DNA of 64,000 bases, from positions 35,898,001 through 35,962,000 of the forward strand of contig OX597823.1 in the NCBI GenBank assembly GCA_951406725.2, given 5' to 3'. The notes below the pieces were generated by a model. It was given only the letters and a program-made list of their open reading frames with translations. It ran no database searches and had not been told where the DNA came from. Source of the DNA: Octopus vulgaris (taxonomy: Eukaryota). Positions 33,506 to 34,212 of this stretch are shown piece after piece; position 1 is the first letter of the stretch; the number at the start of each line of letters is the position of its first letter. The position numbers and the translations under genes were made by a program.

Positions 33506-34041
33506 TATGTTTGACTTTTGCTTTATATTTGTACAAGTTTGCTCCAAGTCTCATTCAGAGACCTCAAGAGACAACAGGTTGGAAGTTCATGTTGTTGTTA
33601 TGCCTAGTGTACCATATATTTGGTTTTGTATTTAGTGTTGCACTAGTGAATGTCTAAAAAAAACATACGAAAATTATGTTTGTTTTAAAACTTGAGATTA
33701 CATAGAAAGTATTTTGCGTAGGATATGAGCAGTTCCCATGAGCACTATCTTTTGAATTTCTGCCATTTTGGGGTTTCCTGGTATCTGAGTTAGGTAGCAA
33801 TCAGCCCCTTTTGCTATCATTCCCAGGGTACCTATGACAACAGATATTGTTTTAGTCTTCAAGTTCCTCATTTTGCTGATTTCTATTTCAAGATCTTTAC
33901 ATTTGCTCAGTTTTTGGTAGGTCTTGACAGATACGTTTATATCGATTGGGACAGTCATATCAATGAGGACGCATGTTCTTTGTCTGAAGTCTTTCAATAT
34001 GATGTCTGGCCTATTTGCATCTATCTTTCTGTCAGTTTGAA
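33506..34041 (-). mobile_element. 5'-truncated RLE-type (Dong/R4-like) LINE 3' end
   Basis: TDRKIDANRPDII..LIDMTVP..K..K.KDLEIEI..IQKIVLMGTAHILRKILSM plus 3' UTR; (TAA)n on both sides. Confidence 0.88.
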
Positions 34042-34212
34042 GTTTGCATCTATCTTTCTGACAGTTTGAAATTTGCATCTATCTTTCTGTCAGTTTGAAA
34101 TTTGCATCTATCCTTCTGTCAGTTTGAAATTTGCATCTATCTTTCTGTCGGTTTGAAATTTGTATCTATTTTTCTGTCAGTTTCAAATTTGCATCTATCT
34201 TTCTGTCAGTTT
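34013..34212. repeat. 29-bp tandem repeat, about 7 copies, derived from LINE coding sequence at the 5' truncation point
   Basis: Unit ATTTGCATCTATCTTTCTGTCAGTTTGAA; the sense strand encodes QTDRKIDAN. Confidence 0.93.

Follow-up and report, generated by a model that had tools for sequence, protein, structure and literature searches.

Tandem arrays of the truncation-point segment at (TAA)n-flanked 5' junctions of putative R4/Dong-like LINEs in Octopus vulgaris

The DNA analyzed was a window of 64,000 nt from Octopus vulgaris (GenBank assembly GCA_951406725.2, contig OX597823.1, positions 35,898,001 to 35,962,000 of the forward strand), and all positions given are those of the window. The element in question, E1, is a 0.7-kb 3' fragment of a long interspersed nuclear element (LINE) of the kind that encodes a reverse transcriptase (RT) plus a restriction-like endonuclease, and it lies between two (TAA)n runs. 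This 5'-truncated, putatively R4/Dong-like copy begins with seven tandem copies of its own first 29 nt, flush with the (TAA)n target. Using Tandem Repeats Finder (TRF), the array was detected on the minus strand with a period of 29, 6.9 copies, 92% matches, 0 indels, and a score of 351. Five full units lie between the innermost unit and the outermost, which has 26 nt, lacks the first TTC, and adjoins the upstream (TAA)n run. On the minus strand, the innermost unit continues as QTDRKIDANRPDIILKD, in frame via RPDIILKD to a stop at 33698. There are 7 substitutions in the 200 nt of the array (3.5%), at 7 different positions and each in one unit only. The original prediction, made from the letters alone, had described about seven copies of a 29-nt unit at the 5' end of the fragment, the innermost leading into RPDII and the outermost abutting (TAA)n, with scattered private substitutions; all of this was borne out, and none of the substitutions is common between units. 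Coordinates are listed in Table 1.

Table 1. Features of the arrays and their host elements, and go-back joints of the E4 family in public contigs (linkers on the element strand; ORF, open reading frame; UTR, untranslated region)
Feature	Position	Strand	Description
E1 5'-junction array	34013..34212	-	29-nt unit x 6.9
E1 array units, inner to outer	34013-41 (innermost), 34042-70, 34071-99, 34100-128, 34129-157, 34158-186, 34187-212 (outermost)		
E1 ORF 3' end	33698..34041	-	Endonuclease PD..D + K..KC (neighbours: K..KY), open to stop
E1 3' UTR	33505..33697	-	(TAA)n follows 33506 in family contigs
Downstream (TAA)n / (CAA)n run	33386..33504	-	3' tail and target of E1
Upstream (TAA)n run	34211..34359	-	Adjoins outermost E1 unit; doubles as E2 3' tail
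E2	34360..38345	-	Sister family, near full-length LINE; RT, CCHC knuckle, RHD, PD..D, K..KY
E4	50031..52621	-	5'-truncated copy of third family
E4 5'-junction array	52596..52832	-	26/27-nt unit x 9
(TAA)n run upstream of E4 array	52831..52917	-	
E5	53573..55315	-	Sister copy of E4, internal control; plain 5' junction
Go-back joint 1, E4 family			Unit 36+1 nt; linker T; depth 8.3x single copy (8.6 in second run)
Go-back joint 2, E4 family			Unit 84+3 nt; linker TAA; depth 5.4x single copy
Go-back joint 3, E4 family			Unit 33+3 nt; linker TAA; depth 10.2x single copy
Go-back joint 4, E4 family			Unit 34+2 nt; linker AA; depth 17.1x single copy

A second array is located at the 5' end of E4. Its six outer joints read TA/TTC and its two inner joints TAA/TTC (the slash marks the joint); the two registers suggest separate priming events, and stepwise copying could yield the same block. 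E1 and E4 are 65% identical in nucleotides over 203 nt, and the E1 endonuclease fragment has 56% amino-acid identity to both E2 and E4, so E1 belongs to a different family from the copy at 50 to 52.8 kb, in line with the prediction that the LINE at 52.6 kb is a different one. The E4 array has 2 substitutions across its 9 units (2/234) and a one-base difference at two joints. Because it has fewer unit substitutions, it is the younger of the two, as had been expected from the scatter in the E1 units, and its low count agrees with the young age of the E4 family. E5, which differs from E4 by 47 substitutions in 1740 nt (2.7% pairwise, 97% identical), has one extra base and no array at its 5' junction, and none was found at the 5' end of E2, which is interrupted by a frameshift near 37.0 kb. 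Within the window, arrays are present on 2 of the 3 young truncated copies adjoining TAA. The probability that both arrays would begin at most 6 nt from a 5' end by chance was estimated post hoc at about 6e-6, based on 12.2 kb of such LINE sequence and on five copies in the window. A coding role for the repeated peptide was rejected, because 29 nt is out of frame and the other arrays derive from other ORF regions, and the fragment has no promoter or RT. The endonuclease residues in the E1 unit are incidental, the other arrays coming from wherever the copy was truncated.

E1, E2, E4, and E5 are classed as putative R4/Dong-like LINEs by their motifs and their (TAA)n target. The motif patterns used for typing E2, E4, and E1 are those that we take to mark such elements. 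E2 and E4 carry an RT followed by a CCHC knuckle, an RHD, and a PD..D..K restriction-like endonuclease with K..KY, and the truncated E1 keeps PD..D and K..KC. The closest solved proteins to E2 are R2 proteins, and many full-coverage homologues of E2 are single proteins of 1100-1260 aa, which is a single long ORF. No protein named Dong or R4 was present among the 120 E2 homologues listed. The N-terminal frame of E2, where the clade has a diverged Myb/SANT domain and no zinc fingers, gave no Pfam match; the published detection of this domain is described as having needed HHpred (PMC7998251). E1, E4, and E5 have (TAA)n on both sides, and 28 distinct junctions of relatives likewise adjoin (TAA)n, the target reported for Dong (PMC3812793; PMC7998251). 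Dong-R4 families are reported to be abundant, young, and recently active in Octopus vulgaris (PMC13282606). Copies of this kind at 33240-38345 and 49807-55640 are stacked through common (TAA)n runs in one orientation, with each copy inserted into a neighboring element's tail or flank. A decayed copy of a related LINE lies at 44.7-48 kb. A 170-nt fragment at 55469-55638, with 76% identity to the E1 3' UTR, ends in (TAA)n upstream of E5 and has no array at its other end.

Public contig runs X1 and X2 were compared with E1 and E4 to obtain the native upstream sequence and the joints. Contigs with loose ends at 34041 (73 from X1, 63 from X2) show that the family's own sequence before the E1 unit closes with CACCA, so the joint AAT/TTC has no native microhomology, and AAT fits the target phase. 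Upstream of E4 (loose ends at 52621), the native sequence includes a direct repeat of 10 nt with a period of 21, which would have been open to slippage on an intact RNA, but the array has period 26/27 and the joints TA/TTC and TAA/TTC. Slippage on native homology was accordingly rejected for E1, where there is none, and for E4, where period 21 was available and 26/27 was used. At both arrays, the unit ends in 1-3 nt fitting (TAA)n and then restarts at the truncation point. In E4-family contigs, four distinct go-back joints (5 rows) were found among the 12 of 66 linker-bearing rows listed. Each of the four linkers is a fragment of (TAA)n (post hoc probability from composition 0.002), whereas among the skip joints (7 rows of the same 12), only one linker, a single base, fits. 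In 6 of 6 arrays, the last 1-3 native bases of the unit are in phase with TAA, and in 5 of 6 there are at least 2 such bases (p 0.02). These four further multi-copy joints of the 52-kb family, with linkers taken from the target repeat, support recurrence beyond the window, in line with the original prediction. No particular mechanism was named in the prediction; the joint rule points to re-priming in the TAA target. One joint was found in X1 as well as X2, and its depth multiples are equal (8.3 vs 8.6), which suggests stasis after formation.

The age of the E1 array was compared with that of the element body. Relative to the family majority, the body has 11 (near-fixed) to 15 differences in 508 positions (2.2-3.0%), among the 40 of 121 rows listed. 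The array (7/200) does not differ from this (Fisher p 0.30 and 0.81), and the similarity is what had been predicted for formation at about the time of insertion. The divergence among units is star-like: in simulations with seven units, the likelihood ratio of a star over uniform growth was 43, 26, and 14 at ages of 2.2, 3.0, and 4.0%. Ordinary growth of a minisatellite, from one slippage duplication at the microsatellite border followed by stepwise slippage or unequal exchange, is quite unlikely on these figures. Neighboring units would be expected to share derived mutations, and none of the 7 substitutions is shared, in a small sample. Further, one joint has equal multiplicity in two runs, the young E4 already has 9 units, and the founding step would need a homology of 1-3 nt over 26-87 nt. 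In favor of such growth, the genome is rich in tandem repeats, minisatellites derived from transposable elements (TEs) are described as common (PMC9659126), single-copy microhomology duplications occur in the E1 family, and stepwise copying could explain why, in E4, two TAA joints form a block next to six TA joints. The arrays arose fast and early and then stayed static, and their formation within the insertion reaction itself is likely.

Fast and early formation would also follow from one burst after insertion, in which the TAA run at the 5' end was later nicked or broken, for instance by re-cutting with the same endonuclease or by a stalled fork, and iterative microhomology-mediated repair copied the element end. 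Such a burst, which we regard as unlikely, would likewise leave joints in the TAA phase and star-like units, followed by stasis, and TAA runs do stay targets, as the stacking of E1, E2, E4, and E5 through them shows. When placed in the first 20% of the life of the copy, it fits the E1 data nearly as well as formation at insertion (ratio 1.3-1.7). Against a burst, the unit divergence is not below the body divergence, and no comparable multi-copy array is present at a 3' end beside TAA within the window. Nor do the units have a common departure from the family majority among the rows listed, a weak point since only about 0.6 would be expected.

For arrays with this position, joint sequence, star-like divergence, and recurrent joint type, we give an even chance to the reading that the E1 array arose while the element was being integrated, through second-strand priming that aborted again and again at the 5' junction, with a putative strand and enzyme. 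Target-primed reverse transcription in a TAA run would give a truncated complementary DNA (cDNA), the 3' tip of which would carry one to a few target-complementary bases from a template jump onto the target or from untemplated addition. The upstream target strand would prime on this tip and be extended by 26-87 nt, and the new strand would then be released, perhaps through re-annealing of the RNA to the cDNA (these RTs being without RNase H) or, alternatively, through the poor processivity of an end-joining polymerase. The released 3' end (T, AA, TA, or AAT) would re-pair by 1-3 nt with the target bases of the tip, and the same stretch would be copied again. After about 5-17 rounds, synthesis would run through, and the units would then age independently. 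Candidate enzymes are the element RT and host Pol theta. The (TAA)n target would ease re-priming, since it is matched by every strand that ends in T, A, AA, TA, or AAT. For R2, microhomology is described as priming the second strand where the 5' junction is truncated (PMC2718515), and a review covers strand displacement without RNase H, as well as priming by host Pol theta, at its junctions (PMC13586686). Reiterative priming, extension, and dissociation are described for POLQ (PMC5068794; PMC12426944).

An identical final sequence would be produced if the reiteration took place on the first strand at insertion, with the RT running off the 5' end of the truncated RNA, copying 1-3 target bases, and falling back onto the RNA at a matching AAT, TA, or AA, repeatedly, in the manner of telomerase- or DRT2-like repeat addition. 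We consider this improbable, as a 26-87 bp RNA:cDNA hybrid must melt in every round, and close to the E4 junction a better match, the native repeat of 10 nt, is unused, though it may have been absent from the truncated RNA. It would, however, account more simply for the clipped outermost E1 unit, as an incomplete last round, and the R2 RT is described as jumping templates end to end to make head-to-tail products (PMC11371274).

Relatives in other animals were collected from metagenome contigs (short-read assemblies). Of 245 loci, 80 were kept, giving 33 junction rows; three rows were dropped (L006 and L011, TAA inside the element; L079, TAA not adjacent) and 2 duplicates were merged, leaving 28 distinct 5' junctions. 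Viral contigs gave 39 pattern matches and no relative, and prokaryote genomes gave one short stray locus only. Raw-read run X23 gave 0 reads, and X24 gave 41 and 247 reads. Arrays in X24 are built of 37-70 nt family segments at 33580-33618, 33970-34012, 50120-50188, 50205-50241, 50969-51012, and 51241-51300, with 77 read joints for one 39-nt unit; they may stem from concatemers in the library, from host filtering of the reads, or from genuine long arrays of another species.

Several results count against second-strand priming at insertion and against the joint rule. Template hairpins were rejected as the stop signal on a scan of six sites, where one site ranked in the top 5% at 50 nt and none did at 30 nt, so this reading does not account for the constant length of the units. 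The missing TTC in the outermost E1 unit requires a different first priming register, and POLQ insertions in flies are described as short and heterogeneous (PMC2895639), unlike the long identical units here. The timing of E1 rests on the 40 listed rows for its body, the ratio over uniform growth falls to only 3 at an age of 6%, and that over an early burst is small, as given above. At the four extra go-back loci, the flanking TAA run is deduced from the linker; contig depth is a rough measure, and several loci could also produce the multiples. No go-back joint was found among the 15 of 181 linker-free rows listed for the E4 family, and the joint of the E4 array itself is absent among the contig rows listed. 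Two go-back joints in the E1 family region at single-copy depth break the rule, one (34023->33990) with a 6-nt native microhomology and the other (33817->33526) with a 9-nt unrelated linker, so ordinary duplications exist beside the array class. Arrays were found at 0 of the 28 junctions of relatives, a weak result because short-read assembly tends to collapse such arrays. The X24 reads are dominated by over-represented family-sequence arrays, mostly without TAA linkers; they were set aside as no evidence, since a family matched by tens of thousands of contigs should give many more reads. The E1 joint was not seen in the 80% of X1 that was read. This last point and the chance that the X24 arrays are library products would favor a sequencing or assembly artefact, which is nonetheless highly improbable: the units differ by private substitutions, the E1 joint (34070->34013) is present in two contigs of X2 (maybe the source sample of the window and hence not fully independent), and one other joint was found in two runs from different studies.

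The arrays are a variation on known 5'-junction chemistry, each ingredient of which is separately known. Dong, DongAg, and DongBg of the R4 clade likewise have an RT with a C-terminal restriction-like endonuclease, a (TAA)n target, and 5'-truncated copies, and the published accounts, in the sections drawn on, make no mention of arrays of the 5'-terminal segment (PMC3812793; PMC7998251; PMC13282606). The junctions of R2 and R1 have in common with those here microhomology of 1-5 nt, extra bases, and template jumps (PMC2718515; PRINT classes, PMC11371274). In these two sources, it is target DNA, inverted cDNA from snap-back, or a whole template that is described as duplicated, whereas the octopus arrays have a direct, element-derived unit of 26-87 nt, 5-17 repeats, and target-phase joints. 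Templated insertions by Pol theta are likewise described as arising in repeated rounds on one flank, each with priming at minimal homology, extension, and dissociation (PMC5068794; PMC2895639; PMC12426944), and 1-3 nt of microhomology with a template from the immediate flank was found in 6 of 6 arrays. Those insertions are, as described, short, patchwork, and few-round (mean 5.5 nt in wild-type flies; PMC2895639), whereas the arrays are long, identical, many-round (26-87 nt x 5-17), and at a retrotransposon junction. L1 twin-priming is reported to make short duplications (median 22 bp) during integration as well, but these are single and tied to a 5' inversion (bioRxiv 10.1101/2024.08.27.596794), whereas the octopus arrays have many copies and no inversion. 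TE-derived minisatellites also have a unit of TE sequence (PMC9659126; PMC3389668); they are described as arising anywhere in a TE after insertion, whereas the octopus arrays are confined to the truncation point and seem to have been complete from the start. In the literature (open-licence papers), no description of multi-copy arrays built from a truncation-point segment was found.

Two structures near other junctions were also recorded. In a coral-type relative (L068:782-843), an inverted (ATT)n block between (TAA)n and the element 5' end resembles a snap-back on the target. At 43023-43105 of the window, two copies of a 42-nt unit with an AAT-rich tail form the apparent 3' end of another retroposon fragment, possibly from an abortive restart of the first strand and a 3' counterpart of the 5' arrays. 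Elsewhere, the window contains an intronless 633-aa ORF at 12829-14730 (minus strand) with an N-terminal BTB/POZ domain (Pfam E 6e-12), presumably Kelch-like in layout, and a 33-nt minisatellite at 17739-18335 with a higher-order structure of 65-145 nt at about 70-80% identity. A long inverted duplication of low-complexity DNA spans 24100-28300, where 24.2-24.6 kb mirrors 26.7-27.1 kb and further mirrored blocks lie at 25.0-26.3 kb and 27.5-28.3 kb. Labeled by eye were a mariner-like transposase split by one stop (29455-30519, minus strand), a broken DNA-transposon-like ORF in three frames (60332-61878, plus strand), and a retroviral-type integrase fragment (155-931).

The joining of the 5' end of non-LTR elements and the maker of the second strand are still described as unresolved (PMC13586686), and this unresolved joining limits R2-based gene insertion. 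If the second-strand reading is true, joints returning to the target repeat record each failed start at many loci of a young family, with the unit length as the run length and the copy number as the number of retries, and the arrays are a one-step route to new minisatellites. If they are instead products of later repair or slippage, their meaning shrinks to repeat instability at microsatellite borders. More tentatively, the Dong/R4 RT of this animal may itself be a repeat-adding enzyme at the 5' junction, with the microsatellite target as its re-priming pad. It is possible, though doubtful, that it would add 5-17 copies of a 26-87 nt cDNA end per integration and that a frequent share of copies would be born with a minisatellite; the arrays would then preserve, across the genome, fossil traces of second-strand starts that failed.
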